From contig DAIMJI010000001.1 in assembly GCA_036722335.1 (NCBI GenBank), forward strand, positions 61,915 through 125,914: a DNA stretch of 64,000 nt. The letters are read 5' to 3'. A program made the translations under genes and the position numbers. Each line of letters opens with the position of its first letter. The first letter of the stretch is position 1. The notes under the pieces were generated by a model. The model saw nothing but the letters and a program-made list of their open reading frames with translations. It was not told where the DNA came from and searched no databases. Below are positions 5,391 to 63,404 of the stretch, piece by piece. This stretch comes from Synergistales bacterium. Its GTDB lineage: Bacteria; Synergistota; Synergistia; Synergistales; 79-D21.

Positions 5391-7303
5391 TTGTACCCAC
5401 CCATTGTTTCCACTGCTTTCCTCCACGCCGGGTCATCGACGGCTTCAAGGACAGCCTCGATTCCAGGATGAGCGAGAAATTTTTCAGGGATGACCAGTTC
5501 AAAAGGTTCCCATGCCATCGTCACGAAATCCAGCCCAAAGGCATCCGCTGCAGCCCTGATTCCAAGCGCCGTGTCTACAATGCCCGACGCGACCCTGCTC
5601 GCCGCATCCAGATGGGTGATGGCCTGCCCTGAGTAACCAGCGATCCTGGAACGGTCAATGCCCGCTTCCCCGATGAACCAATCCAAAAGGACCCTGGTTC
5701 CTGCCCCGGGTTGGCGGTTCACGATACGAATGCCTTTTTCAACGAGGTCATGAATCCCGGCAAGCCCCTTGGGGTTTCCCCTGGCGACAAGGAATCCCTG
5801 CTCCCTGTAATAGAGAAGGTAGCGGACCCATTTCTCACCGTTTGCCAGTTCCTGTATAAAGGGCTCGTTATACCGGCCTGTTTTCCCGTCGAGGAGATGG
5901 CAGGCAGCCAGGTGCCCCTCTCCCCGGGCAAGGGCAGCGAGCCCCCCCAGGCTCCCGACAGCCCGTATCGAAAGGTCAGCACCTCTTTGGCGGACAGGCG
6001 TCACGATTCTTGAAAAAGCCGGGTCGTCTGAACCTTGGAAGAGGGCTCTTCCCCTCCAGTTGACCTTGCGGGTAAACCACACCGTCAGCCCTGTTCCTTT
6101 AGGGCATTCGACCGTTTCCGGAGGCAAAAGGCAATAGCCGTCTGCCTCATGCATTGCCCACATCGTCGAAGCGCCCGAGGAGAGAGGCCACGTTACCTTT
6201 TTCCCTTCTATTTCGGCGGCCTTCACCCGGAGCCACTCCTCTACCCCGGGCGGCGAAGAGTGCGGGAGCATCAGTTCACATTCCACCACCTCGGAAGCAC
6301 CCACGGCCTGGCGCACCAGGGAATCGTCGTCCGCTTCGAGAAGTGTTCCCGACATGGCATTGACTGCCGGATAAGCCAGGCTCCACACCGCGACTGTAGT
6401 CGACATGGGAAAGCCCGGTATCCCCAGCACGAGGGCCCCCTTGACCTTTCCCAGCATCGCTGGTCTTCCCGGCTTCATCCTCAGCCACCTGAAAAGGAGC
6501 TTGCCCTGCGAGGCAATGACTTCCGCGGTGTGGTCCTTTTTGCCTTTTGCCGTTCCCGCGCCTATCAGGACAAGATCGTACCGTCCGGCTGTCGCGTCGA
6601 GTGTCTTTTCAATCAATTCCGCAGAGTCCGGAAGAATGGGGTGAATATCCAGGGCAATCCCCCACCCCCTGAAGATCCCTTTCAGGAGTGCTGAGTTGCT
6701 CTCCGGCACTTTGCCGCTCACAGCTTCGCCAGTTTCCAGCCACTCCTCCATGGGGCAGATTTCGTCCCCGGTAGGGATAAAAAGGCATTTCGGTTTTTTG
6801 AAAACAGGGACAGCTCCAACTCCAGCGCTCAGCAAAAGGGCGACAAGGGCAGGCCCTACCCGTTCTCCCTTGCGTGCGAGGATCTGTCCTTTCATGACAT
6901 CCTCACCTACGGGCCTGACGTTCGCTCCGGGGGGCAGGCCCCTGGAAAGAAGCACCTCCCCGTTTTCAGTGAGAGCCGTATCCTCCACCATGGCGACCGC
7001 ATCCGCCCAGTCCGGCAGAGGACCTCCCGTATTCACCCACAGGCACCTGTCCCGTCCCATCCTTACAATTGTCGCAGGCGTAGCCCCGCTCGTTTCTCCC
7101 GAAACGACCGCATACCCGTCAACTGCCGAAGCCACGTAGTGAGGCACGTTCCGGTTCGACAGCACATCTTCCGCCAGGAGCAGTTCCAGCGCCTGCTCGG
7201 TGGGAACCAACAGGGGCTTGGGATAGCCGAGTTCCGTGACCGCCTCGAGTATCAGCTTTCTTGCTTCCAGGGTGGATACATGTTCTTTGGCCTGATTCAC
7301 CAT
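5378..7303 (-). CDS. moeA: Molybdopterin molybdenumtransferase MoeA fused to a C-terminal periplasmic-binding-protein-like (molybdate/tungstate-binding type) domain
   Basis: The N-terminal roughly 400 aa have the MoeA fold (PHYVASAVDGYAV, IPTGDE, LIGAGTAKGKKDH). The C-terminal roughly 230 aa (FQGSDDPAF...GSLGGLAALARGEGHLAACHLLD...NRQPGAGTRVLLD) resemble the PBP-like domain known to be fused to MoeA. Confidence 0.85.
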   Translation of the reverse strand: MVNQAKEHVSTLEARKLILEAVTELGYPKPLLVPTEQALELLLAEDVLSNRNVPHYVASAVDGYAVVSGETSGATPATIVRMGRDRCLWVNTGGPLPDWADAVAMVEDTALTENGEVLLSRGLPPGANVRPVGEDVMKGQILARKGERVGPALVALLLSAGVGAVPVFKKPKCLFIPTGDEICPMEEWLETGEAVSGKVPESNSALLKGIFRGWGIALDIHPILPDSAELIEKTLDATAGRYDLVLIGAGTAKGKKDHTAEVIASQGKLLFRWLRMKPGRPAMLGKVKGALVLGIPGFPMSTTVAVWSLAYPAVNAMSGTLLEADDDSLVRQAVGASEVVECELMLPHSSPPGVEEWLRVKAAEIEGKKVTWPLSSGASTMWAMHEADGYCLLPPETVECPKGTGLTVWFTRKVNWRGRALFQGSDDPAFSRIVTPVRQRGADLSIRAVGSLGGLAALARGEGHLAACHLLDGKTGRYNEPFIQELANGEKWVRYLLYYREQGFLVARGNPKGLAGIHDLVEKGIRIVNRQPGAGTRVLLDWFIGEAGIDRSRIAGYSGQAITHLDAASRVASGIVDTALGIRAAADAFGLDFVTMAWEPFELVIPEKFLAHPGIEAVLEAVDDPAWRKAVETMGGYKWPN

Positions 7304-12065: not shown

Positions 12066-13388
12066 TCAAAACAGGTCCTTCACTGATTTTCGGATGTTTT
12101 CCATCACCGTCTTGAACGCCCCGTCACTGGCTTTCTTCCTTCCATTCCCCGTGACGGCCCCGCCCCTGGCCTTCCTCGAGCGGGAAGCGTTGGAACCCCC
12201 CTCGGAGGGCAAGTCTGATTCCATATACCGATAGGGATTACGTTCTTTCTCTAAAATGTAACGGATGATACCGGCTCCGCTCGTATACTCCTCACTGTTC
12301 ATGCCCGGGGGCATCCTGCCTGCGTCCAGCGGCCCCGCTACCCGTACGGGCATGTCAAGCAGCCGTGAAACGTAGGCGTCGAGCCCGGGAAGACGTGAGA
12401 CTCCCCCGGTGAGAACGATCCCACCCGGCATCATCGGGATGCCCGATTCCTTCAGTTCAGCCTGGACGAGAGAGCCAAAAAGTTCGTCCATTCGGCAGGC
12501 GATGACCTCCACGATTTCCCTCACGCTGAAAGAAAGCGTTTTTCCAAGGCTCTCTACTTCGATCTTTTCGTTCTGGCCGACGCTGTCCGGAGAAAGTGAA
12601 ACGCTCTTCTTCAAGGCGTCCGCCCTGCTTATCGGGATGCGGAGCACGCAGGCGAGATCATTGGTGACATGGTCCCCGCCAACGGGGATAACGGACAGCC
12701 TTTTAGGCCTTCCTTCCGAAAAGACGGACACTCCCGTTGTCCCGCCGCCGAGGTCGACCACCGCCACCCCAGCCATCGCCTCTTCGTTCGACAGGCAACC
12801 CAGGGAACTGGCCAGCGGCTTCATGACGAGCCCCGAAACCTCGAGTCCAGCCTTGCCGACGCAATTCACGACATTCTGTATGACCGCGCTGGGCACGATA
12901 ATAGACTGCAGTTCCACTTCAAGCCTAACCCCGGTCATGTCGAGGGGGTCATCTATGCCCGTATGACCGTCGAGAGCGTATTCCACGGGGATCGTGTGCA
13001 GGATGCATCGGTTGACAGGAACCGCGATCTCCGACTGGGCAGCTTCGATGATCCTGTCCACGTCGTCGAGCGACACCTGCCTGGCCGAACGTCCAAGGGA
13101 AATCATCCCCTTTGTGCGGATACTGGTCGTCTCCGCGCCTGAAAAAGCGACAGTGACGTTGTCTATGCCCAGCCCAACCATGCTTTCCGCGTCTTCAACG
13201 GCTGCCTGGATTGAACGGGTGGCCTGTTCGAGGTTCACGATCATTCCCTTGCGAATCCCCATGGACGGGGCTTCCCCTACCCCGATGATCTGGGCCTCCC
13301 CTGAGCGAGCATCCATTTCCGCCACGGTGACTGCAATTTTCGTCGTTCCCAAATCCAAACCGACCAAAAGATCGGGTTCGTCCTTCAA
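12066..13388 (-). CDS. ftsA: Cell division protein FtsA
   Basis: Actin-like ATPase blocks VGLDLGTTKIAV and VVDLGGGTTGVSVF. It lies immediately upstream of ftsZ. Confidence 0.95.
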   Translation of the reverse strand: MKDEPDLLVGLDLGTTKIAVTVAEMDARSGEAQIIGVGEAPSMGIRKGMIVNLEQATRSIQAAVEDAESMVGLGIDNVTVAFSGAETTSIRTKGMISLGRSARQVSLDDVDRIIEAAQSEIAVPVNRCILHTIPVEYALDGHTGIDDPLDMTGVRLEVELQSIIVPSAVIQNVVNCVGKAGLEVSGLVMKPLASSLGCLSNEEAMAGVAVVDLGGGTTGVSVFSEGRPKRLSVIPVGGDHVTNDLACVLRIPISRADALKKSVSLSPDSVGQNEKIEVESLGKTLSFSVREIVEVIACRMDELFGSLVQAELKESGIPMMPGGIVLTGGVSRLPGLDAYVSRLLDMPVRVAGPLDAGRMPPGMNSEEYTSGAGIIRYILEKERNPYRYMESDLPSEGGSNASRSRKARGGAVTGNGRKKASDGAFKTVMENIRKSVKDLF

Positions 13389-14245
13389 TTCGACTCGCTC
13401 CCTTCCGGCCTCCGCCCGTTTCCGTCCGTTCCGTCAGGAGGGACATTGCCAACGACGATCTTTCCCTCGTATGTCGCATCGACCAGGAGGGTTGCCCCTC
13501 CTGCATCTGGTTGCCCTGAAAGGATCTTCCGGGTCGCAGAAAAAATCGTATCCCATTTCTCGATATCGTCATCCAATTCCAATTGTATCCTCTGTTTGTT
13601 CCTTTGCGCAACGACTTTCAAGAATCGCTCCCCTCCCCGAACCGAGACCGCTACGGAGATCGGTTTGCCAATCCATCCTTGGGCCGAAAGCTTTTCCTGC
13701 CAGGCCATAACATCCTTGATCGGCAAGGTGGATTTCTGCACGACATTTTCACGCTTTCCAGGATCTTCGAAAGGAGCCTGCAGGTCCTTGTCCCAATCCC
13801 AGTGCGGCAGCTTGGCCAGCTTGCCAGCCCTTTGCCCAACCCCTTTCCAGCCCATCGAAAGAGATTCCGGCCAGATATAGCCGTCGGTTGAAACCACGAA
13901 TTCCTGCCCCTTGTATCCCAGTTCGATCCATGGAAGGCGGGGAACGGCCGAAATGGATATCCGGCCCCAACCGGAAACTGAAACATTAATCCCTGCGGGG
14001 TACCGTTCCTCCAGTTCCCTTGTTATGGCCCCGCGCCGAAGAACCGGAATAACCCAGATTCTCCTGGACAGGCTCCCGATGGATTTCCACAGGACCGGGT
14101 CAGGAAGGCTTCCGGCAGGAACGATTTTCAGTTCTACAAGCCTCAGGACCTGGTAATGGTTTTCAAAGCCGCAAAGGACACCAAGCAAAAGGGCGATCCA
14201 AAGGACCGCGCGCCCAGGACGGGCACTCCTAATCCCACGGGCCAC
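13385..14245 (-). CDS. ftsQ: Cell division protein FtsQ/DivIB (POTRA)
   Basis: N-terminal TM helix (AVLWIALLLGVLCGF) followed by POTRA-like and FtsQ-type domains. It occupies the canonical slot between murB and ftsA. Confidence 0.75.
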   Translation of the reverse strand: MARGIRSARPGRAVLWIALLLGVLCGFENHYQVLRLVELKIVPAGSLPDPVLWKSIGSLSRRIWVIPVLRRGAITRELEERYPAGINVSVSGWGRISISAVPRLPWIELGYKGQEFVVSTDGYIWPESLSMGWKGVGQRAGKLAKLPHWDWDKDLQAPFEDPGKRENVVQKSTLPIKDVMAWQEKLSAQGWIGKPISVAVSVRGGERFLKVVAQRNKQRIQLELDDDIEKWDTIFSATRKILSGQPDAGGATLLVDATYEGKIVVGNVPPDGTDGNGRRPEGSESN

Positions 14246-25760: not shown

Positions 25761-26189
25761 TCAATCCTGGGCGTGTGCCTCTCCCTGGAAAAACCCCAGG
25801 AGACTGAACCCCGCAGTCGACTTCCCTTCGGGGCTTCTTGGCCGGGAAGCCACCGCCATACGGTTCGTAACAGACACCGGGACAGAAATGACCGCGACCT
25901 TTTCTCCATTCGCCATGCCCATTTTTGCACTCGCCACACTATACACTCTTGAGGGAGATAGTAAAGAAGCCATATTGTTTCTCAAATCAAGCTCAATTTC
26001 CTGGTAGTTTTCAATCGTTTCGTTGAGCCGCGTCAGGCGCTGCTCCAGACTCATGTTGAAAAGCCGGATACCGCCCAGTCCCATGACGAGGAAGCCTATA
26101 AGGACGGCAATTGCTGCAAAGGCCGAGTGTGTACGGCTACCGCACTGCTTTCTTCCTCGAGCCCTAGAAACGGATGCCATCACCCTCAC
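25761..26189 (-). CDS. ftsL: FtsL-like cell division protein (single TM helix plus coiled coil)
   Basis: 142 aa with TM helix FAAIAVLIGFLVMGLGGI followed by a heptad-rich segment. It occupies the slot between rsmH and ftsI, and its start overlaps the rsmH stop. The call rests on position and topology only. Confidence 0.55.
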   Translation of the reverse strand: MRVMASVSRARGRKQCGSRTHSAFAAIAVLIGFLVMGLGGIRLFNMSLEQRLTRLNETIENYQEIELDLRNNMASLLSPSRVYSVASAKMGMANGEKVAVISVPVSVTNRMAVASRPRSPEGKSTAGFSLLGFFQGEAHAQD

Positions 26190-27737: not shown

Positions 27738-27741
27738 TAGG

Positions 27742-28087
27742 GGAGCATCCCATAAGCCGGGTTCTGTCATGAACGACCATTTATCTAGGCTTTGGCTTAC
27801 GCCAAAGCTCAAGCGACCGTACCCGGGGGTCAGCGGGCCGCCTCATCCCCCCCTATTCGGTCTTGCTCCGGACGGGGTTTACCTAGCCCGCAGGTCACCC
27901 TGCGGCTGGTGGGCTCTTACCCCACCTTTTCACCCTTACCGGCTTTAGGCCGGCGGTTTGTTTCTGTGGCACTCGCCTGAGGTTCGCACCTACTGGACGT
28001 TATCCAGCGTCCTGCCCTGCGGAGCCCGGACTTTCCTCCCCCGCTGGCCTGGAGGCTCTGCGGCGGCGGTCGTTTGTGATACTCCCG
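27742..28087 (-). ncRNA. rnpB: RNase P RNA, bacterial type A
   Basis: The reverse complement contains the universal blocks:
- GAGGAAAGTCCGGGCTCC (28022-28037)
- CCACAGAAAC
- GGTAAGGGTGAAAAGGTGGGGTAAGAGCCCACC
- GGTAAACCCC
- GCAAGACCGAATAGG
- AGATAAATGG
- ACAGAACCCGGCTTA
A P1 helix pairs 5' GGGAGUAUC with 3' GAUGCUCCC. A TAAAAT -10-like hexamer at 28094-28099 sits 7 nt upstream of the predicted 5' end. Confidence 0.93.
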
Positions 28088-37083: not shown

Positions 37084-37396
37084 ATTTTGCCGTCACCTCT
37101 TCCACGAGCCATGAGGCCACTTCTTCGACACGGTCTTTTCGTGCCTGGACGAAAGCCTCCGTTTCCATTTTTCCTTCCGACTTTATCGCGTCTGCCCGCT
37201 TTTCAGCCTCAGCTTCCGCCTTCGTAATTTCCTGGCGAAATAGCTGGTGCAACTCCTGCTTGGCTTCCTTGACGCGTTTTTCCCCATCGGAACGAGCTTC
37301 TGCAACTAAGCGAGCCGCTTCCACTTTCGCATCCTGGATGATCTTCCTGGAACTTTCTTCCGCCTGCCTGATCTCCTCGGCCAGGTTAGCCGCCAT
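37070..37396 (-). CDS. ntpF: V-type ATP synthase subunit G/H-like (NtpF-type peripheral stalk)
   Basis: About 108-aa E/K/A-rich coiled coil, first gene of the operon. ATG 37396 has a GAGGGGGG SD 8 nt upstream; the track uses GTG 37405. Confidence 0.6.
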   Translation of the reverse strand: MAANLAEEIRQAEESSRKIIQDAKVEAARLVAEARSDGEKRVKEAKQELHQLFRQEITKAEAEAEKRADAIKSEGKMETEAFVQARKDRVEEVASWLVEEVTAKYGLS

Positions 37397-37464
37397 TGTT
37401 TTCACCCCCCTCGCTTACCGTTTAAAAATGCAATCCACAATACACAAGATTTTCCACCCCGTGT

Positions 37465-37494
37465 ATTCTAATGTGCAACGGAATATTGTGTCAA
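37465..37494 (-). promoter_or_regulatory. Sigma-70-type promoter of the V-ATPase operon
   Basis: The minus strand reads TTGACA (37494-37489), 18 nt of spacer, then TAGAAT (37470-37465), about 60 nt upstream of the first start codon. Confidence 0.5.
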
Positions 37495-37504
37495 TTGTCA
37501 CAAT
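37485..37504. promoter_or_regulatory. 20-bp near-perfect palindrome overlapping the V-ATPase -35 element (candidate operator)
   Basis: ATTGTGTCAATTGTCACAAT matches its own reverse complement at 18 of 20 positions. It overlaps the TTGACA -35 hexamer. Confidence 0.4.
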
Positions 37505-37541
37505 CCACGATAAAAATGTGATACTAGGGCTGCCCCCCCCC

Positions 37542-37569
37542 AAAAAAAAAGGAGGCCTTTTCGGCCTCC
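37542..37569 (-). terminator. Rho-independent terminator downstream of tRNA-Gly
   Basis: Minus-strand stem GGAGGCC/GGCCUCC with a 5-nt loop, followed by U9 (plus-strand A9 at 37542-37550). Confidence 0.75.
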
Positions 37570-37580
37570 TTTTATTCCCA

Positions 37581-37656
37581 TGGAGCGGACAACGGGATTC
37601 GAACCCGCGACCCTCGGCTTGGGAAGCCGATGCTCTACCAGCTGAGCTATGTCCGC
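37581..37656 (-). tRNA. tRNA-Gly (anticodon CCC)
   Basis: The reverse complement is GCGGACATAGCTCAGCTGGTAGAGCATCGGCTTCCCAAGCCGAGGGTCGCGGGTTCGAATCCCGTTGTCCGCTCCA. It has a 7-bp acceptor stem, the D-loop AGCTCAGCTGGTAGAGC, anticodon loop TTCCCAA, the T-arm GGTTCGAATCC, and an encoded CCA. Confidence 0.95.
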
Positions 37657-37669
37657 ATCTGCGGGGCAT

Positions 37670-37698
37670 ATTATATCGGTGAGCCCGAGCTTTGGCAA
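37670..37698 (-). promoter_or_regulatory. Sigma-70-type promoter for tRNA-Gly
   Basis: The minus strand reads TTGCCA (37698-37693), 17 nt of spacer, then TATAAT (37675-37670). The -10 element ends 13 nt upstream of the mature tRNA 5' end. Confidence 0.5.
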
Positions 37699-38318: not shown

Positions 38319-38675
38319 ATGGCTCTATTCCTGCCAGCCGTTTTTTTCCTTGTTGCGGCAATGGCTTTTGGGCTTTACGCAAGAAAGTCGGCGAACTTCA
38401 AGGTTCGCCGTTTTTTCTGGCTTTCACTCGTCCTGGGACTTGTTGCTTCCGCGATGGCCCTTGGCATTCTGGGCGAGTGGTGGCTCATGCTAGGGCCAAG
38501 CATCCCCCTTACCCTCATCTTGCTGCTCCGCCTAAAGTTCCCCTTCATCTTTGGGGTCATGGAAAAAAACACCTCCGGCAATGAGGAGGACAGCCCGCCC
38601 GCTAGCGCCTATAATGACGGCCATGAGGATATCGACGAAGAAAAAATCGCAACGAAAAGAAACGGCCCGCCATAG
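38319..38675 (+). CDS. Hypothetical small membrane protein (three predicted TM helices plus an acidic tail)
   Basis: 118-aa ORF starting 10 nt after the fur-family stop. It has hydrophobic segments LFLPAVFFLVAAMAFGLY, FFWLSLVLGLVASAMALGIL and LMLGPSIPLTLILLLRL, then the tail NEEDSPPASAYNDGHEDIDEE. I recognise no family. Confidence 0.5.
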   Translation: MALFLPAVFFLVAAMAFGLYARKSANFKVRRFFWLSLVLGLVASAMALGILGEWWLMLGPSIPLTLILLLRLKFPFIFGVMEKNTSGNEEDSPPASAYNDGHEDIDEEKIATKRNGPP

Positions 38676-39762
38676 GACCTTTCTGTCCCTTCTGCCCGCA
38701 ATCGCGATCCTGCTCGGGGGATTGTTTTCCTTTCCCTCACCTTCTTCGTCTTCACAGGGAGACACGCTCTACTCCATTCTCATTCCTTTCGAGGAAGGGG
38801 GAATAGTCAGGGCCGTTCTGCCGGATCAATCAACCTTCCCTATCGGGACAGTCCGCACCCTTCCGGAAAAAGCAAAATGGCCAGCCTATACGGCCAGCAA
38901 ATGGGGTGTTCCGGGAACAGTGGCGGCTTCTGCTGTCAATGCAATCCACCTTCTCATTTCCGTGGATGGAGGTAAGGGAAAGATCCTGAGCTTGATTCCT
39001 TCTGAGACAATTGCCCCTGCGGCAGGGGCGCACAGCAGCCTTGTGATAGATGGAAAGGGAGGGCATGCCCTTTTCGGAGGCTGGGCTCCCCCCGTAGGAA
39101 CCCCCGTAACGATTGTCAACCCTTCAGGGAGCGAACGGCCTCTTTCCAGTGCTCCTCTTCCCGGTCCAGGAGAGATTCTAAGGATGGACGTGAGCAGGCA
39201 ATGCTCTCCTTACATGATCGAAATTGAAAACCGCCCGGGAGGACGGGTTTTCTCCTGGTCGAGAAAATACGGCCAAACCGGGGTGATTGCAAGAGTCATT
39301 CGCCCCGTAAGGGGAACTGGGCGCTTCGAGGGGACGCTGTTCCAGTCCGTTGGGCGAATACGGGCCAACCATCCTGGCGTGATCGACATCAGCACCTCAT
39401 CGGAAGGAGCGGTGGGAGGATTCCAGATCATCCCGTTTAACCATGCCCGTTCTCCAGAAATGGCAGGCGCCTGGAACATGACACAGTGGCTTATTCTCGA
39501 TTCGCCTGACGGAAAAACCTCCCTTGCAGGCCAGCCCCCCCTTTTTGGGGGAGCCCTCGTGCCAGGAACAGGAGAAACGGAACATCTCTGGGATCTGTGG
39601 TCGACCTACGGCCGAAAACCGCTTGTGCTTTGCCGCCTTGACGGAGGCAAGTGGGAACGCCTTCCCGAGGTTTCCGGGCGCCAGGATCACGCCCTGGAGA
39701 GGTTAACGCATCTCCGGATCTATTTCCCCATCGCGGAAGAACCCATCAAGCTGGAGCCCTGA
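38623..39762 (+). CDS. Hypothetical secreted/anchored protein, no recognisable domain
   Basis: Long ORF with plausible coding character. ATG 38623 gives a basic N-region plus hydrophobic core (MRISTKKKSQRKETARHRTFLSLLPAIAILLGGLFSF), consistent with a signal peptide or anchor. The track start at 38551 is less likely. The ORF overlaps the preceding one in another frame. Confidence 0.6.
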   Translation: MRISTKKKSQRKETARHRTFLSLLPAIAILLGGLFSFPSPSSSSQGDTLYSILIPFEEGGIVRAVLPDQSTFPIGTVRTLPEKAKWPAYTASKWGVPGTVAASAVNAIHLLISVDGGKGKILSLIPSETIAPAAGAHSSLVIDGKGGHALFGGWAPPVGTPVTIVNPSGSERPLSSAPLPGPGEILRMDVSRQCSPYMIEIENRPGGRVFSWSRKYGQTGVIARVIRPVRGTGRFEGTLFQSVGRIRANHPGVIDISTSSEGAVGGFQIIPFNHARSPEMAGAWNMTQWLILDSPDGKTSLAGQPPLFGGALVPGTGETEHLWDLWSTYGRKPLVLCRLDGGKWERLPEVSGRQDHALERLTHLRIYFPIAEEPIKLEP

Positions 39763-39833: not shown

Positions 39834-41660
39834 CTACTCCACGGTCACGCTCTTTGCCAGGTTCCTGGGCTGGTCGATCTCGCAACCCCTTTGCTTTGCC
39901 ATGTGGTAGGCGAACATTTGAAGCGGGATGACTGTAAGGAAGGGAGTCAGGTCTTCGTCGGTCCATGGGACCCTGACGACGTCGTTCGCATGCTTCGAGA
40001 TCAACTCGTCCCCATCGTTTGCCAACGCCAGGATCGGTGAGCGACGAGCCTTGGCTTCCTGTATGTTCGAAAGCGTTTTCTCGTAAAGGCTGTCTCTCGG
40101 GATGATCGTCATGACCGGCACACCGGGTTCAAGAAGCGCGATCGGTCCATGTTTCATCTCCCCCGCCGCGTAGGCCTCAGCGTGGATATAGGAAATTTCC
40201 TTCAGTTTCAACGCTCCCTCGAGGGCTACGGGGAAGGAAATGCCCCTACCGAGGAACAGGAAATCCTTACGGTCCGAATATTTCTCCGCAAGCTCACGGA
40301 TCCTGTCTTCGCGCTCAAGCGTGATTTCCACCTTGTAGGGAAGCCTCAACAACTCTTCGAGGAGGCGGTTCTCCTCCGCAGCAGAAAGGGATTCCCTCAA
40401 CCTGCCGAGATAGAGGGCCAAAAGGTAAAGGGCCGCTATCTGCCCCATGAAAGTCTTGGTCGCCGCAACACCTATTTCGGGTCCGGCCTTCAGCAGCAGG
40501 ACATCGTGAACTTCCCTGGCCAGGGTCGCACCTCGCACGTTGGTGACGGCCATGCAGTGAGCGCCCTGAGTGCGCGCCAGCCTCTGGGCAGCGATCGTAT
40601 CTGCCGTTTCTCCCGATTGGGACACAAAAACGGCCAGGGTTTCCGCATCTGCCCTCGAATGGCGGTAGCGATATTCCGAAGCGATATCGACCTTGACTTC
40701 CAGGTCGGTCCATTTTTCAAGGACTCTTTCTGCCACAAGGGCCGCGTAGTAGGAAGTCCCGCACGCCACGATATGCAATTTCTTCCAAGACTTGACCAGT
40801 TCCGGCTCCCACCCAAGCTCCGCGGATAAATCAACCTTGCCGTTTTCCACACGCCCCTTGAGAGTCGTCCGCAGGACAGCCCCCTGCTCGTGGATTTCCT
40901 TGAGCATGAAATGAGGGTAGGCAGCCTTCTCGGTCATCGAGATGTCCCAATCGATGACGGAAAGGGTTTTATCCACTGGCATGCCTTCACTCGTCCAAAC
41001 CCGCAGACTCCCTTTGGAAACCGCCGCGATTTCTCCTTCTTCCAGGTACGCGATCTGGCGGGTATAGGGCAATAGGGCAGGAACGTCAGACGCGCAAAAA
41101 CCTTCCCCCTCCCCCACCCCAAGGATCAGGGGAGAGCCTTTCCTCAGGCAGAAGAAAGTATCTTCTATCTCGCGGTTCATGATGGCCAAGGCATACGATC
41201 CACGCAGCTTTTCCACCAGCTTGAGGAGAGCTTCAAGCATGTCCCCCTGGTAAAGACGCGCCAACAGCTGGACGATAACCTCCGTGTCCGTTTCGGAACA
41301 GAAGGGAACTCCTGCCGCTTCCAGTTCCTCCCTGAGATCCATGTAATTCTCGATGATCCCGTTGTGGACAAGGACAAAATTCCCGCAATCGTCACAATGC
41401 GGGTGCGCGTTGTCCACTGACACCCCTCCGTGGGTCGCCCACCGTGTGTGACCGATTCCCTGGTTGCCTACCAGGTTTCTTTCCCCCGCAAGCCGTTCCA
41501 GGTCCGAGACCTTTCCAACCTCCTTGATGACCTCGAGGCGCCCGTCGTTTCTAACGGCCATGCCTGCCGAGTCATACCCGCGGTATTCCAGTCTCTTCAG
41601 GCCTTCCAGGAGGACCTCCGGAGCGTTTCGCATGCCCACGTAGCCCACTATTCCACACAT
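39834..41660 (-). CDS. glmS: Glutamine--fructose-6-phosphate aminotransferase GlmS
   Basis: 608 aa from ATG 41660 (MCGIVGYVG, with the Cys2 nucleophile), two SIS domains, and the C-terminal NLAKSVTVE. The track start (GTG 41819) would read through the ribozyme. Confidence 0.96.
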   Translation of the reverse strand: MCGIVGYVGMRNAPEVLLEGLKRLEYRGYDSAGMAVRNDGRLEVIKEVGKVSDLERLAGERNLVGNQGIGHTRWATHGGVSVDNAHPHCDDCGNFVLVHNGIIENYMDLREELEAAGVPFCSETDTEVIVQLLARLYQGDMLEALLKLVEKLRGSYALAIMNREIEDTFFCLRKGSPLILGVGEGEGFCASDVPALLPYTRQIAYLEEGEIAAVSKGSLRVWTSEGMPVDKTLSVIDWDISMTEKAAYPHFMLKEIHEQGAVLRTTLKGRVENGKVDLSAELGWEPELVKSWKKLHIVACGTSYYAALVAERVLEKWTDLEVKVDIASEYRYRHSRADAETLAVFVSQSGETADTIAAQRLARTQGAHCMAVTNVRGATLAREVHDVLLLKAGPEIGVAATKTFMGQIAALYLLALYLGRLRESLSAAEENRLLEELLRLPYKVEITLEREDRIRELAEKYSDRKDFLFLGRGISFPVALEGALKLKEISYIHAEAYAAGEMKHGPIALLEPGVPVMTIIPRDSLYEKTLSNIQEAKARRSPILALANDGDELISKHANDVVRVPWTDEDLTPFLTVIPLQMFAYHMAKQRGCEIDQPRNLAKSVTVE

Positions 41661-41664
41661 TTCT

Positions 41665-41836
41665 TTCTTCGCCCCTTTGCTTTCCAGCAAGAGACCCGGC
41701 CTTTGTCCCGGGAATCGCTTCCCGTATTTGTAGCCGGGTTTTAACGGGCCTCTCCTGCAAAGGCCCCAGGGGTATCCGCCGAATTTTCGATTGCCCCCGT
41801 CCTCGTCAACTGGTTTCACCAGTTCAGGCGCTTGAC
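41665..41836 (-). promoter_or_regulatory. glmS ribozyme (GlcN6P-activated self-cleaving riboswitch) in the glmS 5' leader
   Basis: The minus-strand RNA reads UCA-AGCGCCUGAACUGGUGAAACCAGUUGACGAGGACGGGGGCAAUCGAAAAUUCGGCGGAUACCCCUGGGGCC. This matches the conserved glmS core (A/GCGCC.GAACU ... GACGAGGA.GG.GG.. AUCGAA.UUUCGGCGGAU.CC). The predicted cleavage site is 5' of G 41831. The element fills the galU-glmS intergenic region. Confidence 0.9.
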
Positions 41837-41851
41837 CATATCCGCGTTATT

Positions 41852-47927: not shown

Positions 47928-49685
47928 TTAGCGGATCCGGACCTTGCCCTGGTAAACCAGTCCCCTGGAACCGTCGACGGTGACCATCATCCCGTCGTCA
48001 AGCATTTTCATCGCGTCTGTCGCCGAAACGACACAAGGGATTCCCATTTCGAGCGCCAGGATTGCCGCATGGCTTGTCAAACCACCCTCTTCGCAGATGA
48101 TCGCTGATGCCTGGCGGATCACATCCACGAAATCGCGGTCAGTTTGTCTTGCGACAAGCACGGCCCCCGGCTTCATCTTGCCGCGGGCCTCCGCAGCCGT
48201 CACCCCTTTGACGACAGGCCCGAAAGCTTCCTTTCTTACAAGGGAAATCCCCTTCACGACAATTCGGCCGACCGTATGGACCTTCACCATATCTGTCGTG
48301 CCGGCAATACCTGTCGGTATCCCGGAAGTCACGACGACGATGTCCCCTTCTGCTGCCAACCCCTCAGCGAGTGTTGCCAGCAGGCCGGATTCAACCATTT
48401 CCTGTTCGTCCTCGTGTTTTTTCCCGGTCAGGAGCGGGACGACGCCCCAGACCAGGGCCAGCTCCCGCCAGGTGCCGGGCTCTACGGTCACACCCGCTAT
48501 CGGGCATCCGGGCCTGTACTTGCTCACCATCCTGGCCGTGCTGCCGCTCTGGGTCAGTGAGAGGATGACCTTGGCCTGCATTTGTTCGGCAATCGTCACA
48601 GCCGCATGGCTAACTGCATCAGGAACGGTCTGGGAAGCCACAGGCGGCAGGGAAGAGGGTCTCTGCCAGACCCTGATTTCCCTTTCGGTCCTGGTGATGA
48701 TGCGGGCCATTGTTTCCACAGCCTGAACCGGATACGTTCCCTTCGCGGTCTCTCCGGAAAGCATGACCGCGTCCGCCCCGTCCAGGACTGCGTTGGCAAC
48801 ATCGTTAACCTCCGCCCTGGTTGGGCGTGGGTTCCTTATCATCGAGTCCAGCATCTGCGTCGCGACGATAACGGGTTTCCCTTGTGAACGTCCCAGGTCG
48901 ACCATCCTCTTCTGGATCAGCGGCACTTCCTCTGCAGGCAGCTCAACACCAAGGTCACCACGGGCAACCATCAGGCCGTCGACCACATCGACGATCTCAT
49001 CAAGCGAAGCGACCGCTTCGCTTGTCTCGATCTTCGCGATGATCTTCATGGCCCCTCCCAGCTCTTCCATGACCCTGCGGACTTCCATGATGTCATCCCG
49101 GCTCCGGACAAAAGAAACGGCGATATAGTCAAGCCCGTTGTCCAGCCCCCAGCGGATGTCCTCCCGGTCCTTCCTGGTCAGGGTCGGGATCTTCAGCTTC
49201 GCCCCGGGTATGCTGACGCCTTTCCTCTCTCCCAGTTCGCCCCCGACCAAAACCCTCATCAAGAGACTTGTCCCCTGAACCTCCAGGACCTTTAGCTGGA
49301 GCGTCCCATCATCGATGAACACGTCCTGGCCCGGCTCAAGTTCCGAACAGATCCCTGGATGGCTAATGCTCACCTGTTTTTCGTCCCCTTCAATCTCTTC
49401 CGAGACGAAGGAGAAGGCCGCGCCCTGGACAAGCTTTACCGGCCTGCCCTCTTTCAAGGTGCCCGTGCGAATTTCCGGGCCTTTCGTATCCAGCACGGTC
49501 GCCAGTGGGACTCCGAGCTGTTTTTCGACCGCCCTGATGTTTTCAAGGTTCTTTCCGTGGCTTTCATAGGAACCGTGGCTGAAATTCAACCGGGCGACAT
49601 TCATCCCCGCTTTGACCATTTCCGCCAGGATTTCTCTCGACCCGCAGGCAGGGCCAAGCGTGCAGACGATCTTAACCTTTTTCAT
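47928..49685 (-). CDS. pyk: Pyruvate kinase with C-terminal PEP-utilising-enzyme mobile domain
   Basis: KIVCTLGPA, MNVARLNFSHG and MVARGDLGVE motifs. The C-terminal roughly 100 aa contain GGLTSHAAILALEMGIPCVV. Confidence 0.96.
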   Translation of the reverse strand: MKKVKIVCTLGPACGSREILAEMVKAGMNVARLNFSHGSYESHGKNLENIRAVEKQLGVPLATVLDTKGPEIRTGTLKEGRPVKLVQGAAFSFVSEEIEGDEKQVSISHPGICSELEPGQDVFIDDGTLQLKVLEVQGTSLLMRVLVGGELGERKGVSIPGAKLKIPTLTRKDREDIRWGLDNGLDYIAVSFVRSRDDIMEVRRVMEELGGAMKIIAKIETSEAVASLDEIVDVVDGLMVARGDLGVELPAEEVPLIQKRMVDLGRSQGKPVIVATQMLDSMIRNPRPTRAEVNDVANAVLDGADAVMLSGETAKGTYPVQAVETMARIITRTEREIRVWQRPSSLPPVASQTVPDAVSHAAVTIAEQMQAKVILSLTQSGSTARMVSKYRPGCPIAGVTVEPGTWRELALVWGVVPLLTGKKHEDEQEMVESGLLATLAEGLAAEGDIVVVTSGIPTGIAGTTDMVKVHTVGRIVVKGISLVRKEAFGPVVKGVTAAEARGKMKPGAVLVARQTDRDFVDVIRQASAIICEEGGLTSHAAILALEMGIPCVVSATDAMKMLDDGMMVTVDGSRGLVYQGKVRIR

Positions 49686-49932
49686 TTTGTGACCTCCCGC
49701 AAAGAATCTTCCCGTGTTTTGTGTAAACCTCCGCCATGCCCCTGATTTTCATGGCGGACGTATGCTCTGTGAATTGGGAAATCCACAATTCTCCAGCATC
49801 CAGTTTTTCTGTATGGCTGAACTTGGTTTCCTGGCCCCGGGTCAACCCTATCACCGTCACCCCGTTTTCCAGTGCCCGAACCACGATGTAGTCGCTCAGG
49901 ACGGAACACACCTCACCAGGTTCTTCTCTCAT
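49672..49932 (-). CDS. mtrB: trp RNA-binding attenuation protein (TRAP, MtrB) homolog
   Basis: The 86-aa ORF reads [62 protein letters not shown]. It aligns by eye, without gaps, to B. subtilis MtrB as I recall it: [62 protein letters not shown]. The 3' end overlaps the pyk start by 14 nt. Confidence 0.85.
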   Translation of the reverse strand: [86 protein letters not shown]

Positions 49933-49955
49933 GACTACCCCTCCCCTTCGAGGAA

Positions 49956-52900
49956 CTAGAGGATCACTTCAACAGCCCCTCCCGACAATTCAGCCAGCCT
50001 GTCCGAGAGGGAAGTCTCCGGTTTTACCCTGATATCCCTGAGACGGACGACCGCGGTCGAGGCTTCGTCCACATACTCGACAAGAACGGGACACGATCCC
50101 GGATGCCCTTTCAATTCCCTGCACATGGCCTTGAAAGGCAAATCGCAATCCTTTGCACGCAGTCTTATCCTGACGAAAGGATCCTGCCGGGAATCGATTT
50201 CGGCAAGGGGGATGATCTCCTCCGCTATGAGGGTCACACCTCCACGATCCTGGACTTTTCCTCGGGCGAAAAACACCTTGCCCGGGTCGAGGATTCCTTT
50301 TACGGCCGGCCAGCTCTTCGGGAAACACACGACCTCAACCTTGGACTCCGTGTCTTCGAACTCAAGGATCCCCATGAGGTCGCCCCGCTTGGTCGTTTTT
50401 TCCCTAAAGCCGAGAAGAAGCCCTCCGATGATCGCCGGCGTCTCCGCAGCCTTCCAGAAAGAAAGGTCCGAAATCCTGCAGGTCGTAAACCTTGAAATTC
50501 GCTCCTCTTCCCGTTCGAGCGGGTGTCCCGATATGAAAAGACCCAGAACTTCCTTTTCCAGGTCGAGAAGTTCGAGAAGGGAAAAATCCTCGCTGGGATC
50601 TAGCCTGGGCTCCTCTTCCGGCAGGTCGTCCACGAGAGCCAGGAGTGAGCGTTGCGCGCCTTCACATTGTTTCTTCTGCGCCCGGTCCACAAGCATGGGG
50701 AGGTTTTCGAGAAGCTGTCTCCTGTTCGGATGAAGGCTGTCGAAGGCTGCTGACTTCACAAGGTTCTCGAGGACCCCCCTGTTCACGGTCCTGAGGTCAA
50801 CCTTGTTCAGGAAATCCCAGAGGGATTGGAAGGTCCCCTTTGACTGGCGGGCTTTCAGTATTGCCTCTACTGCGGTTTCTCCCGCCTTTGCCACCGCTTT
50901 CAAACCGAAGCGTATCACCTTCCCCACCGCGGAGAAAGAGGCGCCCGACTCGTTGACATCCGGCGGCAGCACCTGAGTCCCGGCATTCCGGACCTCCCTG
51001 ACGTACCGGGCTAGGACGTCCATCCTGGATCCGATCTGGCTTGACAGGAACGCGGCAAGGAACTCGGCCTTGTAATGAGCTTTCAGGTAGGCGGTCTGGT
51101 AGCTGATAAGGGCGTATGCCGCGCTGTGGGATTTGTTGAAGCCATAGCCGGCGAACTCCTGGATAAGGTCGAAAATCGATTCGGCGGTGGACTCTTCCAC
51201 TCCGTTATTCAGGCAACCCTCTACGAATTTTTTCCGTTGCTGCTCCATAACTTCCACTTTTTTCTTGCCCATCGCCCGCCTTAGGAGATCGGCTTCGCCG
51301 AGCGAGAACCCTCCCAGGGTCGCTGCTATTTGCATGACCTGCTCCTGGTAAAGGACCACCCCGTAAGTCTCCCTGAGGCATGGCTCCAGGGAAGGATGGG
51401 GATAAACCACTTCGGAGCGGCCATGCTTGCAGTTGATGAACTGGTCCACCATTCCGCTTCCCAGTGGGCCGGGACGGTAAAGAGCCAGGATAGCCACGAG
51501 ATCCTCGAACGAATCCGGCACCATCCGCTTCAGGAGTTGCCTCATCCCCGGCGATTCGAGCTGGAACACCCCCAGGGTATCTGCCCCCTGGAGGAGGCCA
51601 AATGTAAGTGGATCACCGAGCGGAATTGCGTTTATGTCCGGGACTTCCTTCCCGTTAAGCCTGATGTTCTCCAGCGTGTCTTCTATCATCGAAAGGGTCC
51701 TGAGGCCAAGGAAATCCATCTTTACCAGCCCAAGTTTTTCGATCGCTTCCATTCCGAACTGCGTGACGACCTGCCCATCCCCTATTTTCCTGACCGGGAC
51801 GAGCTCCGTCACCTCCACGGGTGAGATCACGACACCTGCCGCGTGCTGGGAACAATGCCTGGCGAGCCCCTCGATGCTCCCCGCCACCTCCAGGAGGTTC
51901 CTGATGGCCGGTTCCTTTTTCCGGAACTCGGCGAGGTCCGGGGAAGCCTCGATGGCTTCATGAATACTCGCGGCCCCTTCCGGCACGCTCTTGGCCACCC
52001 GGTTCACGTCCGCGAGGGGAACTCCCAGGGCCCTTCCCACATCGCGGATCGCCCCCTTGCTCTTCATCCGGTCGAACGTGATGATCTGGGCTACATGGGT
52101 ACGCCCGTATTTTTCGACGACGTATTCCAGGACTTCATCGCGCCTCTTGTCCGAGATATCCGTATCGATATCGGGCATGCTTATCCGCTCCGGGTTGAGG
52201 AAGCGCTCGAAAAGCAGGTGGTAGCGAATAGGATCGAGTTCGGTAATCCGAAGCGCCCAGGCCGCGAGCGACCCCGCGGCGGAACCCCGGCCGGGTCCAA
52301 CGGGAATGCCGCGTGATTTCGCCGCCCGTATGAAATCGGAAACCACCAGGAAGTACCCGGAAAACCCCATCTTCCTGATGACGCCTAGCTCATAGGCCAT
52401 CCTTTCGCGGTATTCGCCTGGGACGGACCCGTTCATCCTCTCTTCCAGGCCCTCCCATGCCAACTTCTCAAGGTAACTCTCCAGGTTCTCTCCCTCGGGG
52501 ACCTCGTAACGGGGAAGACGGTAGACGTTGAAATCCAGCTTCACATCGCATTTTTCGGCAACCTCGACCGTGTTGGTGAGGGCCTCGGGAAGCTCTCGGC
52601 CGAAAAGGGTCCACATTTCGGAAGGGGAGCGCAAATAAAAGTCTGAAGAACCGAACCGATACCGGTTGGGTTCGTCCACGGTCGCGTTCGTCTGGACACA
52701 AAGAAGCACGTCGTGCCAGGAAGCGTCGGATGCATTCAGGTAATGGGCATCGTTCGTCGCAACAAGAGGAATCCCTGTCCTTCTTGAAATCCTGATAATT
52801 CCCTTGTTCACCAGTGCCTGCTCGGGCAAGGCGTTATGCATGATTTCGAGGTAGAAATTCCCCTTGCCCATAATGTCCTGGTACAGGGTCGCCCGCTCTT

Positions 52901-53363
52901 CCGCTCCTTTTTCGTTGCCTTCGAGTATCATCGAAGGGATTTCACCCGCAAGGCAGGCGGAAGATGCGATCAACCCCTTCGAATAACGCGCAAGGAGATC
53001 ATGATCGATACGGGGCTTGTAGTAGAAACCCTCCGTGTTTGCGATCGAGACCAGTTTGACGAGGTTGTGGTAACCTTCAAGGTCACGTGCCAGCAGGACA
53101 AGGTGATTGTTTCCCCCCTTCCTGTCCCTGCAGGTATGTCCGAGCGGATCGATATAGGTTTCGCACCCAAGCAGGGGTTTGACACCGGCAGAAAGGCACT
53201 TTTCATAGAATTCCACGATGCCGTACATGGCCCCATGATCCGTAAGGGCCACGGCGGGTGATCCCCACTCAGCCGCCTTGGCGGCCAGCGCCGAGCAACG
53301 GATGGCTCCGTCGAGAAGGCTGTACTCGCTGTGGACGTGAAGGTGGACAAAAGGTTCCGTCAC
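49956..53363 (-). CDS. dnaE: DNA polymerase III subunit alpha DnaE
   Basis: 1135 aa with an N-terminal PHP domain (FVHLHVHSEYSLLDGA), polymerase core blocks (PDIDTDI, GLVKMDFLGL, FNKSHSAAYA) and a C-terminal OB fold. Confidence 0.97.
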   Translation of the reverse strand: MTEPFVHLHVHSEYSLLDGAIRCSALAAKAAEWGSPAVALTDHGAMYGIVEFYEKCLSAGVKPLLGCETYIDPLGHTCRDRKGGNNHLVLLARDLEGYHNLVKLVSIANTEGFYYKPRIDHDLLARYSKGLIASSACLAGEIPSMILEGNEKGAEERATLYQDIMGKGNFYLEIMHNALPEQALVNKGIIRISRRTGIPLVATNDAHYLNASDASWHDVLLCVQTNATVDEPNRYRFGSSDFYLRSPSEMWTLFGRELPEALTNTVEVAEKCDVKLDFNVYRLPRYEVPEGENLESYLEKLAWEGLEERMNGSVPGEYRERMAYELGVIRKMGFSGYFLVVSDFIRAAKSRGIPVGPGRGSAAGSLAAWALRITELDPIRYHLLFERFLNPERISMPDIDTDISDKRRDEVLEYVVEKYGRTHVAQIITFDRMKSKGAIRDVGRALGVPLADVNRVAKSVPEGAASIHEAIEASPDLAEFRKKEPAIRNLLEVAGSIEGLARHCSQHAAGVVISPVEVTELVPVRKIGDGQVVTQFGMEAIEKLGLVKMDFLGLRTLSMIEDTLENIRLNGKEVPDINAIPLGDPLTFGLLQGADTLGVFQLESPGMRQLLKRMVPDSFEDLVAILALYRPGPLGSGMVDQFINCKHGRSEVVYPHPSLEPCLRETYGVVLYQEQVMQIAATLGGFSLGEADLLRRAMGKKKVEVMEQQRKKFVEGCLNNGVEESTAESIFDLIQEFAGYGFNKSHSAAYALISYQTAYLKAHYKAEFLAAFLSSQIGSRMDVLARYVREVRNAGTQVLPPDVNESGASFSAVGKVIRFGLKAVAKAGETAVEAILKARQSKGTFQSLWDFLNKVDLRTVNRGVLENLVKSAAFDSLHPNRRQLLENLPMLVDRAQKKQCEGAQRSLLALVDDLPEEEPRLDPSEDFSLLELLDLEKEVLGLFISGHPLEREEERISRFTTCRISDLSFWKAAETPAIIGGLLLGFREKTTKRGDLMGILEFEDTESKVEVVCFPKSWPAVKGILDPGKVFFARGKVQDRGGVTLIAEEIIPLAEIDSRQDPFVRIRLRAKDCDLPFKAMCRELKGHPGSCPVLVEYVDEASTAVVRLRDIRVKPETSLSDRLAELSGGAVEVIL

Positions 53364-55144
53364 TCCGCAGCGCTCCCTTCCTCGAAGCTTCCGGAACCGC
53401 CCTCCCGCTCATCCTGCCGAACGAGAAGGACTTCCCCCCCAAACCACCCTATCATTTCATCCAGCGGAGAAGCGGTCGTCTCGGCATCCTGCCCCTTCGC
53501 TTCTTCCTGGTGGTGAGTTTCATCCCGTTTTTCTTTCCCGGCCTTTCCTGAAATGTTCCTCCGTCGCTCCCACGGGGCAGCGCCCGTGGGCTCCTTCGAG
53601 GGACCAGGCTCAATGATGGCCGCGCTTTCGGCCCGGATGCACTCGTCCTTCCAGCAAAACGTTACCGGAAGAAGGCCCAGCGCCTCTTCCTTCAGTGAAG
53701 TGAACCTCTTAAGGTTCCTTTCGAGGCGGATCAGCTCGAAGCCGACCCTGTCCTTCTCCCTGAAATCAACGATGATCCCGCCTTCCCCCTCACGAACCCG
53801 GGCACCGGAAAGAGCTGCGGCCACTTGCCGGTCCGCGGGATTCGCGCTTTCCAGCAGCCCGGACCAGAAACGAACCAAAGAATCGGCATCGACCGGGACC
53901 TTCATGCCTTCTTCGGTCTTGGGCAAGGCCTGGCAAGGAGTAGGGCTCTTTTCCTCGCGGGGGAGAGGATGCGTCCCATCCGTGGAAAGCGATGGCCTTT
54001 CAACCATGGGCCTATGCCGCCTCTCGCCGATCCCCGTGGATAGTCCCTGCAAGAGAAGTCCGGCCAAGACATCCGTCCTGATCCCCCACCTCAATCTTCC
54101 CAGCATCCTGGAGAGGTTTTCCAGGCAAGATCGCAGCCCCTCGGAAGACCAGAAAGGGGATTCCTCAAGAAGGAACTCCTTTTCTTCGGCGGAAAGCTCG
54201 ATACCCTCGAGAGTCTTCTCACCCCACGCGTTAAGGATCCAGAGATCGCGAAAAATCATGAACAGGCTCTCGACAAGCCTCTCCACCGAGGCTCCCCTGT
54301 GCAAAGATTCCATCAGGATCCCGATGGCCTCCTCAGGGTTCGACCTGACGCCCCTGACGAAGGTCTCCATTTCGGCACGGCTGCCTCCGCCTACGAGCGT
54401 GCGAACCGACTCCACCGTGACAGAGCCCGCCCCGACAGGGATAGCCTGCTCGAGTAGAGAAAGCGCATCCCTCATCGCTCCATCCGCCTGCCTGGCCAAT
54501 TCCCAGAGGGCCGCCTCCTCGGAAGGAATTTCCTCCTTCTCGCACACGAGGGCCAGTCGTGACGCGATGTCCTTCCCCGGAATCCGCCTGAACGGAATGT
54601 GCTGGCAGCGCGAACGTATAGTGACCGGCACCTTCTGGGGCTCTGTAGTCGCAAGGATGAAAACCGCATGCGATGGCGGCTCCTCCAAAGTCTTGAGAAG
54701 CGCGTTAAAAGCAGGCTCAGTCAACATATGGACTTCGTCTACGATGTAAACCTTCCTCCGAGAGGAGAACGGCGCGAGAGACACATGCGCCTTGAGTTCG
54801 CGGACCTCGTCAATACCCCGGTTGGAAGCGCCGTCTATCTCAACGACGTCGAGGCTTTCCCCGGCTGTGATCGCCCTGCAGCTTGGGCAGCCGCCGCAGG
54901 GTTCGGCTCCCGTCCGTTCATCCGTGCAGTTCAAGGCCTTGGAAAGGATCCTGGCCAGCGATGTCTTGCCGCAACCTCTCGGCCCCGAGAAAAGGTAGGC
55001 ATGAACCGTTTTCCCCCCTTCAATCGAGTGAAGGAGAACGGTGACCGCGGCTTCCTGCCCGACCACTTCCTCGAACCGAAGCGGCCTGTAGCGCCGGTAT
55101 AAGGACACATAACGGCCCTGTGAGGACAAAATCTCGTTGTTCAT
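53360..55144 (-). CDS. dnaX: DNA polymerase III subunits gamma/tau DnaX
   Basis: YRRYRPLRFEEVVGQ, Walker A GPRGCGKTS, a zinc module CGGCPSC, and the SRC motif TIRSRCQ. The C-terminal half is long and low-complexity (tau). Confidence 0.95.
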   Translation of the reverse strand: MNNEILSSQGRYVSLYRRYRPLRFEEVVGQEAAVTVLLHSIEGGKTVHAYLFSGPRGCGKTSLARILSKALNCTDERTGAEPCGGCPSCRAITAGESLDVVEIDGASNRGIDEVRELKAHVSLAPFSSRRKVYIVDEVHMLTEPAFNALLKTLEEPPSHAVFILATTEPQKVPVTIRSRCQHIPFRRIPGKDIASRLALVCEKEEIPSEEAALWELARQADGAMRDALSLLEQAIPVGAGSVTVESVRTLVGGGSRAEMETFVRGVRSNPEEAIGILMESLHRGASVERLVESLFMIFRDLWILNAWGEKTLEGIELSAEEKEFLLEESPFWSSEGLRSCLENLSRMLGRLRWGIRTDVLAGLLLQGLSTGIGERRHRPMVERPSLSTDGTHPLPREEKSPTPCQALPKTEEGMKVPVDADSLVRFWSGLLESANPADRQVAAALSGARVREGEGGIIVDFREKDRVGFELIRLERNLKRFTSLKEEALGLLPVTFCWKDECIRAESAAIIEPGPSKEPTGAAPWERRRNISGKAGKEKRDETHHQEEAKGQDAETTASPLDEMIGWFGGEVLLVRQDEREGGSGSFEEGSAAE

Positions 55145-63141: not shown

Positions 63142-63167
63142 TAAAAAAAGGGAGCTTGCGCTCCCCC
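63142..63167 (-). terminator. Rho-independent terminator downstream of rpmE
   Basis: Minus-strand stem GGGAGC/GCUCCC with loop GCAA, followed by U7 (plus-strand A-run 63143-63149). Confidence 0.75.
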
Positions 63168-63404
63168 CTAGTTCTCTTCTGTTTCTTTCCTCTGGCCGTA
63201 ATCCATCCCGGCGTATTTCTTCTGGAATTTTTCCAGCCGGCCGGCTTCTGAAACTACGCGCCCTTTCTTTCCCGTGTAGAAGGGATGACAGGCGTTGCAG
63301 ACCACAACCTTTAGTTCTTTGCTCGTTGAGCGGGTTTCGAAAGTATTGCCGCAAGCACAAACAACTTTGCAATCTTCATAACGCGGATGGATATCCTTTT
63401 TCAT
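63168..63404 (-). CDS. rpmE: 50S ribosomal protein L31 (Zn-ribbon type)
   Basis: MKKDIHPRY...[12 protein letters not shown]...[11 protein letters not shown], with two Cys pairs. Confidence 0.96.

Follow-up and report, generated by a model that had tools for sequence, protein, structure and literature searches.

Within a 64,000-nucleotide (nt) stretch of the genome of a Synergistales bacterium (contig DAIMJI010000001.1; hereafter the window), an open reading frame (ORF) of 86 residues is a genuine ortholog of MtrB, the tryptophan-activated RNA-binding attenuation protein (TRAP), in a bacterium of the phylum Synergistota. We consider it likely, with a probability of roughly 0.75, that this gene supplies a functional TRAP which is constitutively co-expressed with its neighbors, forms a tryptophan-activated ring and has its RNA targets elsewhere in the genome. 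The mtrB gene of the window is real but ordinary, and can already be named by current annotation pipelines.

Family membership is clear from profile searches. The protein scored 125.7 bits against the Pfam family TrpBP (PF02081; cut-off 21.3, E = 6.3e-37), covering profile positions 3–66 of 69, and 127 bits against the NCBIfam equivalog model NF009724, "trp RNA-binding attenuation protein MtrB" (cut-off 117). All 15 matches found by phmmer among the PDB sequences are TRAP, and residues 13–76 align gaplessly with the G. stearothermophilus protein in 1C9S (E = 2.3e-24). Over a 65-residue core the identity to TRAP of Bacillus subtilis and G. stearothermophilus is 60–63%, again with no gaps, and the blocks GLTRG (29–33), EKLD (42–45), QFTEHTSA (53–60) and KIRG (62–65) are all present. 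The TRAP homology, the gapless core alignment and these blocks had been proposed in a first-pass annotation of the window, and each is confirmed here. An AlphaFold model of the single chain (37 homologs in the input) displays seven beta-strands with a predicted local distance difference test (pLDDT) score of 82; residues 13–78 make up the core beta-sandwich, and residues 1–12 and 79–86 form low-confidence tails. Every significant Foldseek match of this model in the PDB (41 of 41) is TRAP, the best being the TRAP–RNA complex 1C9S, with a target-normalized template-modeling (TM) score of 0.93 and a root-mean-square deviation of 1.0 Å.

The residues on which TRAP function depends were compared in an alignment of 123 family members. 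In known TRAP, tryptophan is held by hydrogen bonds from the side chains of T30, T49, T52 and S53 and the main chain of T25, G27, D29 and Q47 (PMC1474065, PMC11725872), while (G/U)AG triplets are contacted by F32, E36, K37, D39, K56 and R58 (PMC3184956, PMC1474065). The tryptophan contacts are identical in the window protein (B. subtilis/window: T25/T31, G27/G33, T30/T36, Q47/Q53, T49/T55, T52/T58 and S53/S59), and the RNA contacts are kept as well (F32/F38, E36/E42, K37/K43, D39/D45, K56/K62 and R58/R64). Conservation at these columns is complete or no lower than 93% among the 123 homologs, with the exception of position 29, a main-chain contact at which the window protein carries E35; the change is conservative, and D and E alternate at this position within the family. 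The retention of tryptophan-binding and RNA-contacting residues, previously suggested from the sequence blocks, therefore holds in full. The mtrB gene is under strong purifying selection: it differs from the ortholog at locus L001 (95% identical) at 49 nucleotides, 42 of which are third codon positions, and 40 codon changes are synonymous as against four that are non-synonymous (10:1).

Both junctions of the gene are tight. The dnaE stop codon (TAG, 49956–49958) is followed by an intergenic spacer of 23 nt (49933–49955), in which the GGAGG core of the putative mtrB Shine–Dalgarno sequence (49940–49944) lies 7 nt 5' of the ATG. At the other end, the mtrB stop codon (TAA, 49672–49674) and the pyk ATG (49683–49685) define an overlap of 14 nt (49672–49685). 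The first-pass annotation was exact on the spacer and the overlap alike, and all coordinates it gave are correct. The pyk Shine–Dalgarno sequence GGGAGG and the pyk ATG both lie inside the last mtrB codons, a stretch that also codes for the TRAP tail G-R-S-Q-N-E-K-G. The C-terminal extension of the protein is thus a product of the overlap, as GRSQNEKG is the translated pyk ribosome-binding site together with the first pyk codons.

The mtrB protein retrieved 36 genome loci for a synteny survey, 24 of them from Synergistota. We found dnaE upstream of mtrB in 34 of the 36; of the remaining two, one is on a contig of 2.7 kb and the other on a contig beginning inside mtrB. The gene next after mtrB is pyk in all Synergistota loci but L025 (23 of 24). 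Most Synergistota loci also share dnaX upstream and NUDIX, nfo, cdaA, ybbR and glmM genes downstream. Counting the isolate Aminomonas paucivorans, which has the identical 14-nt overlap, dnaX-dnaE-mtrB-pyk recurs in about 25 Synergistota genomes. A related order, (ytrH-ytrI)/dnaE-(pgpA, malic enzyme or CTP-transferase)-mtrB-(accD-accA)-pfkA-pyk, was seen in Bacillota metagenome-assembled genomes (MAGs) and in Metallumcola ferriviriculae; without accDA and pfkA at this place, as in Synergistota, mtrB directly abuts pyk. The Bacillota order corresponds to the B. subtilis backbone dnaE-ytsJ-accD-accA-pfkA-pyk with mtrB added. In Bacillus, mtrB is the second gene of an mtrA(folE)-mtrB operon, an arrangement unlike every locus surveyed. 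Since dnaE-mtrB-pyk recurs throughout Synergistota and a related order is found in Clostridia-type Bacillota, the placement is inherited synteny, usual outside Bacilli and no peculiarity of this genome; the "unusual context" that had been read into it does not stand.

The overlap itself is more restricted. The junction GGGAGG-N7-ATGAxAAxGGTTAA is kept in loci L001–L008 and in A. paucivorans (L041), and by coordinates L009 and the Acetomicrobium locus L010 have the 14-nt overlap too. A second Synergistaceae subclade shows a gap of 11–34 nt between mtrB and pyk with no overlap, and judging from these junctions the 14-nt overlap is clade-specific.

TRAP is a small and tight family, with 107 clusters (50% identity) in a set of 1.84 billion representatives and 1149 clusters at 90% identity, many of the latter named MtrB (Synergistaceae, Aminomonas, Aminiphilus and Clostridia). 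Among the matches listed, the nearest proteins are 85–99% identical and come from Synergistaceae/Synergistales MAGs, and annotated MtrB orthologs of Synergistota and Clostridia, including M. ferriviriculae and many MAGs, span 66–99% identity. Named isolates with an ortholog are A. paucivorans DSM 12260 (71%) and Aminiphilus circumscriptus. In a neighbor-joining tree of the 65-residue core, built without support values, the Synergistota TRAPs form one clade beside Clostridia-type sequences, and three Bacilli proteins group separately; the window core is 68–77% identical to Clostridia-type TRAPs as opposed to 57–63% to Bacilli TRAPs. The literature places TRAP "in Bacilli" (PMC11725872) or calls it "present in several Bacilli", and our literature searches found no published study of TRAP in Synergistota or Clostridia. 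The suggestion that TRAP occurs here in an unexpected lineage is thus correct with respect to the Bacillus-centered literature only: the databases already hold many Synergistaceae and Clostridia MtrB entries, and JGI and NCBI label such proteins as tryptophan RNA-binding attenuator or MtrB.

Nearly all genes of the window lie on the (-) strand, and dnaX-dnaE-mtrB-pyk is a same-strand string of housekeeping genes. Promoter-like and terminator-like sites between 47000 and 57000 showed no excess over the shuffled expectation, with none at the dnaE-mtrB or mtrB-pyk junctions. Given this result and the spacing of the junctions, it is reasonable to suppose that mtrB is co-transcribed with dnaX, dnaE and pyk and that pyk is translationally coupled to mtrB. 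Co-transcription and coupling, which the first-pass annotation had also proposed, are therefore plausible from the tight packing, the lack of promoter-like or terminator-like sites above chance and the conserved junction.

RNA targets were sought as triplet repeats. The strict scan took GAG/TAG triplets, optionally with AAG/CAG, at spacers of 2–3 nt; the relaxed scan used dynamic programming with skips allowed and spacers of 1–4 nt. Both scans covered the window and 42 mtrB loci on either strand and were compared with Markov-shuffle nulls. As a positive control, the B. subtilis trp leader was scanned in the same way, and its 11 repeats were all recovered. Neither strand of the window holds a chain of five or more GAG/TAG triplets with 2–3 nt spacers, and the 473 kb around the 42 mtrB loci, including the surroundings of the pyk, pfkA and accD starts, yielded no (G/U)AG repeat array. 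The relaxed scan of the window and the 42 loci gave nothing above the nulls (best window score 5.0, null maximum 5.3). That best NAG-like cluster, at 63155–63192 (-), consists of seven loose triplets including AAG/CAG at the 3' end of rpmE (L31). With a score inside the null range, it is probably a chance occurrence. The scans give no sign of TRAP acting on pyk, dnaE, pfkA or accD mRNAs, and recruitment of the protein to another target set, one of two alternatives offered in the first-pass annotation, finds no NAG array near any mtrB locus to support it, whether for pyk or for another gene.

Genes linked to tryptophan are likewise missing from the neighborhood. Pfam annotation of essentially all sizeable ORFs found no trp or folE gene in the window, where it identified housekeeping genes only (the dcw cluster, moa, a V-type ATPase, glmS/glmM, cdaA, dnaX/dnaE, prfA and others). 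Searches by tblastn gave no match to anti-TRAP or FolE in the window, and none to TrpA or TrpB of E. coli in the window or in 40 mtrB loci. The absence of trp, folE and anti-TRAP genes from the window had been reported in the first-pass annotation and is borne out. TRAP targets in B. subtilis are also unlinked to mtrB, so the lack of local arrays is uninformative about a regulon elsewhere in the genome.

Taken as a working TRAP, the system would operate as follows. The mtrB gene would lack a separate promoter and terminator and be transcribed with its neighbors, and through the 14-nt overlap the ribosomes that terminate on mtrB would be coupled to the translation of pyk. Synthesis of TRAP would therefore be constitutive and its control allosteric. 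With tryptophan in plentiful supply, the amino acid would be bound between subunits of an 11- or 12-mer ring, and the loaded ring would wrap mRNA carrying approximately 9–11 (G/U)AG triplets at 2–3 nt spacing, causing transcription attenuation or a block of translation. The RNA segments bound would belong to the leaders or start regions of genes for tryptophan biosynthesis and/or transport elsewhere, rather than to pyk or dnaE.

Several points weigh against this functional assignment. No RNA target, trp gene or NAG array was seen in the window or the mtrB loci, so that the regulon is read only from the conservation of residues, and co-transcription and coupling are read from spacing alone. The hints at ring size conflict: Leu at position 15 resembles the 11-mer of G. 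stearothermophilus, but the interface pair S72-E73 is Cys-Gly and the tail is longer. Furthermore, many Synergistota are amino-acid fermenters. Such a lifestyle would suit a retargeted TRAP of Synergistota and Clostridia, one that would still sense tryptophan and bind NAG-type repeats yet control tryptophan uptake, catabolism or other genes instead of a trp operon. The lack of trp genes near mtrB (40 loci searched for TrpA/TrpB) and the separate Synergistota clade in the unsupported neighbor-joining tree are in keeping with this, as is a sister Synergistaceae subclade with T30N, H33L and T52I in the tryptophan pocket. We nevertheless regard retargeting as unlikely, if worth keeping in view: missing linkage says nothing when B. 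subtilis targets are unlinked too, the canonical pocket and the RNA-contacting residues are intact in the window protein, and the window and the mtrB loci yielded no candidate target. The T30N/H33L/T52I subclade (numbered as in B. subtilis) keeps E36, K37, K56 and R58, and its mtrB does not overlap pyk. In B. subtilis, the T30N protein still binds tryptophan, yet its affinity for RNA falls about 70-fold and it shows weak constitutive binding (PMC1474065), and by analogy the response to the ligand could be altered in the T30N/H33L/T52I subclade. A broader and quite speculative proposal, which we rate as improbable, is that TRAP outside Bacilli has become hard-wired into dnaE-(accDA-pfkA)-pyk and serves a non-canonical regulon in amino-acid-fermenting Synergistota (e.g. 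tryptophan import or degradation, or the flux of phosphoenolpyruvate (PEP) and aromatic precursors), with the T30N/H33L/T52I subclade perhaps responding differently to ligand.

Local action of TRAP on the dnaE-mtrB-pyk transcript, tying pyruvate kinase, and with it PEP use, to tryptophan status, would make sense of the 14-nt overlap with the pyk Shine–Dalgarno sequence inside mtrB, of the mtrB-(pfkA)-pyk linkage kept across two phyla and of PEP being a shikimate pathway precursor. It is very improbable, as neither the window nor the 473 kb of orthologous loci holds a NAG array of at least five repeats, the other Synergistaceae subclade has an 11–34 nt gap in place of the overlap, L025 has no pyk after mtrB, and 1–3 kb of other genes separate mtrB from pyk in Bacillota. 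That the ORF is a decaying relic or a chance frame, or was recently acquired by horizontal transfer from a donor resembling Bacillus, might be suspected from its small size, the lack of a promoter of its own and its distance from any trp gene; this is hardly credible for a protein that scores far above curated cut-offs, has all functional residues invariant and shows a 10:1 ratio of synonymous to non-synonymous change against a 95% identical ortholog. The gene is also found at this very place in dozens of genomes belonging to two phyla, and its core is nearer to Clostridia-type TRAPs (68–77%) than to those of Bacilli (57–63%). Conservation at the sequence level argues decisively against relic, chance ORF and recent transfer alike, which we consider refuted. 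A functional ortholog with targets elsewhere in the genome therefore remains our preferred interpretation.

Table 1. The mtrB gene and its surroundings, loci of related genomes, and other features of the window (window positions unless a locus is named).
Feature	Position	Strand	Basis or remark
mtrB, TRAP subunit, 86 residues, ATG start	49672..49932	(-)	ORF, family profiles, predicted fold, substitution pattern
Putative mtrB Shine–Dalgarno sequence GGGGAGGGG	49938..49946	(-)	Sequence reading; consensus only
mtrB/pyk junction	49672..49698	(-)	pyk Shine–Dalgarno GGGAGG 49693-49698, 7-nt spacer, ATG; read from sequence
dnaE, DNA polymerase III alpha, 1135 residues, directly upstream of mtrB	49956..53363	(-)	Pfam PHP, DNA_pol3_alpha, finger, HHH_6
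dnaX, upstream of dnaE	53360-55144		4-nt overlap between dnaX end and dnaE start
pyk, pyruvate kinase with C-terminal PEP-utilizer domain, 585 residues, directly downstream of mtrB	47928..49685	(-)	Pfam PK, PK_C, PEP-utilizers
Clostridia-type Bacillota loci with dnaE-(pgpA/malic enzyme)-mtrB-(accD-accA)-pfkA-pyk	L012-L014, L026-L029, L032, L034-L036, L042
Loci of the T30N/H33L/T52I subclade	L011, L015-L025, L030; mtrB ~6001-6260 in most
glmS ribozyme	41684-41843	(-)	Rfam RF00234, 92 bits; upstream of glmS
RNase P RNA, bacterial class A	27738-28085	(-)	296 bits; between mraZ and a hexapeptide-transferase gene
tRNA gene	37584-37656	(-)
Sizeable ORFs without Pfam match	38551-39762	(+)
	13385-14245	(-)
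	25761-26189	(-)
	37260-37682	(+)

Other features of the window are listed in Table 1. Because of the ribozyme upstream of glmS, the longest-ORF call for this gene (39834–41819) must over-extend into the ribozyme. In the dcw cluster mraY and ftsW are intact, and two ORFs without a Pfam match occupy the positions expected for ftsQ and ftsL. The (+) strand ORF of 403 residues without a Pfam match comes after a Fur-family gene. Outside the window, two proteins of approximately 1090 residues, P0208 and P0220, matched TRAP weakly and were considered as single-chain TRAP rings; they were rejected, being unrelated CARDB/fibronectin-like repeats that share only a recurring "GLTRGQxYRF"-like motif.

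TRAP, a textbook case of an RNA-binding attenuator, has been studied only in Bacilli, and its extension in canonical form to Clostridia and the phylum Synergistota, despite the tiny size of the family, is the main implication of this work. The dnaE/pyk neighborhood of mtrB outside Bacilli is a modest evolutionary note; it points to an uncharacterized regulon rather than a new mechanism.

The TRAPs of B. subtilis and G. stearothermophilus, which form 11-mers (PDB: 1WAP, 1QAW, 1C9S), belong to the same Pfam and NCBIfam family as the window protein, share the predicted seven-stranded sandwich and have identical tryptophan and RNA contacts. Compared with them, the window protein has 12 extra N-terminal and approximately eight extra C-terminal residues, the substitutions H33S and I44W, and C-G in place of S72-E73 at the interface. 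The genes differ in setting, as the window mtrB follows dnaE and overlaps pyk in a host of the phylum Synergistota, and the Bacillus gene is second in mtrA(folE)-mtrB. The Bacillus TRAP–anti-TRAP circuit (mtrA(folE)-mtrB, rtpA) has no counterpart in the window, with dnaE upstream and neither folE nor anti-TRAP present; mtrA(folE)-mtrB and anti-TRAP define that circuit, not the protein family. TRAP of Alkalihalobacillus halodurans, a 12-mer (PDB: 3ZZL, 9BDS), is of the same family, with the same residues and 57% core identity, and its C-terminal differences change the size of the ring and not its function (PMC3184956). The switch to the 12-mer depends on Lys15-Asp71 pairing; at position 15 the window protein carries Leu like the 11-mer, so that the sequence by itself does not tell the ring size. 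From the annotated MtrB proteins of Synergistota and Clostridia, the window protein differs in nothing of substance.

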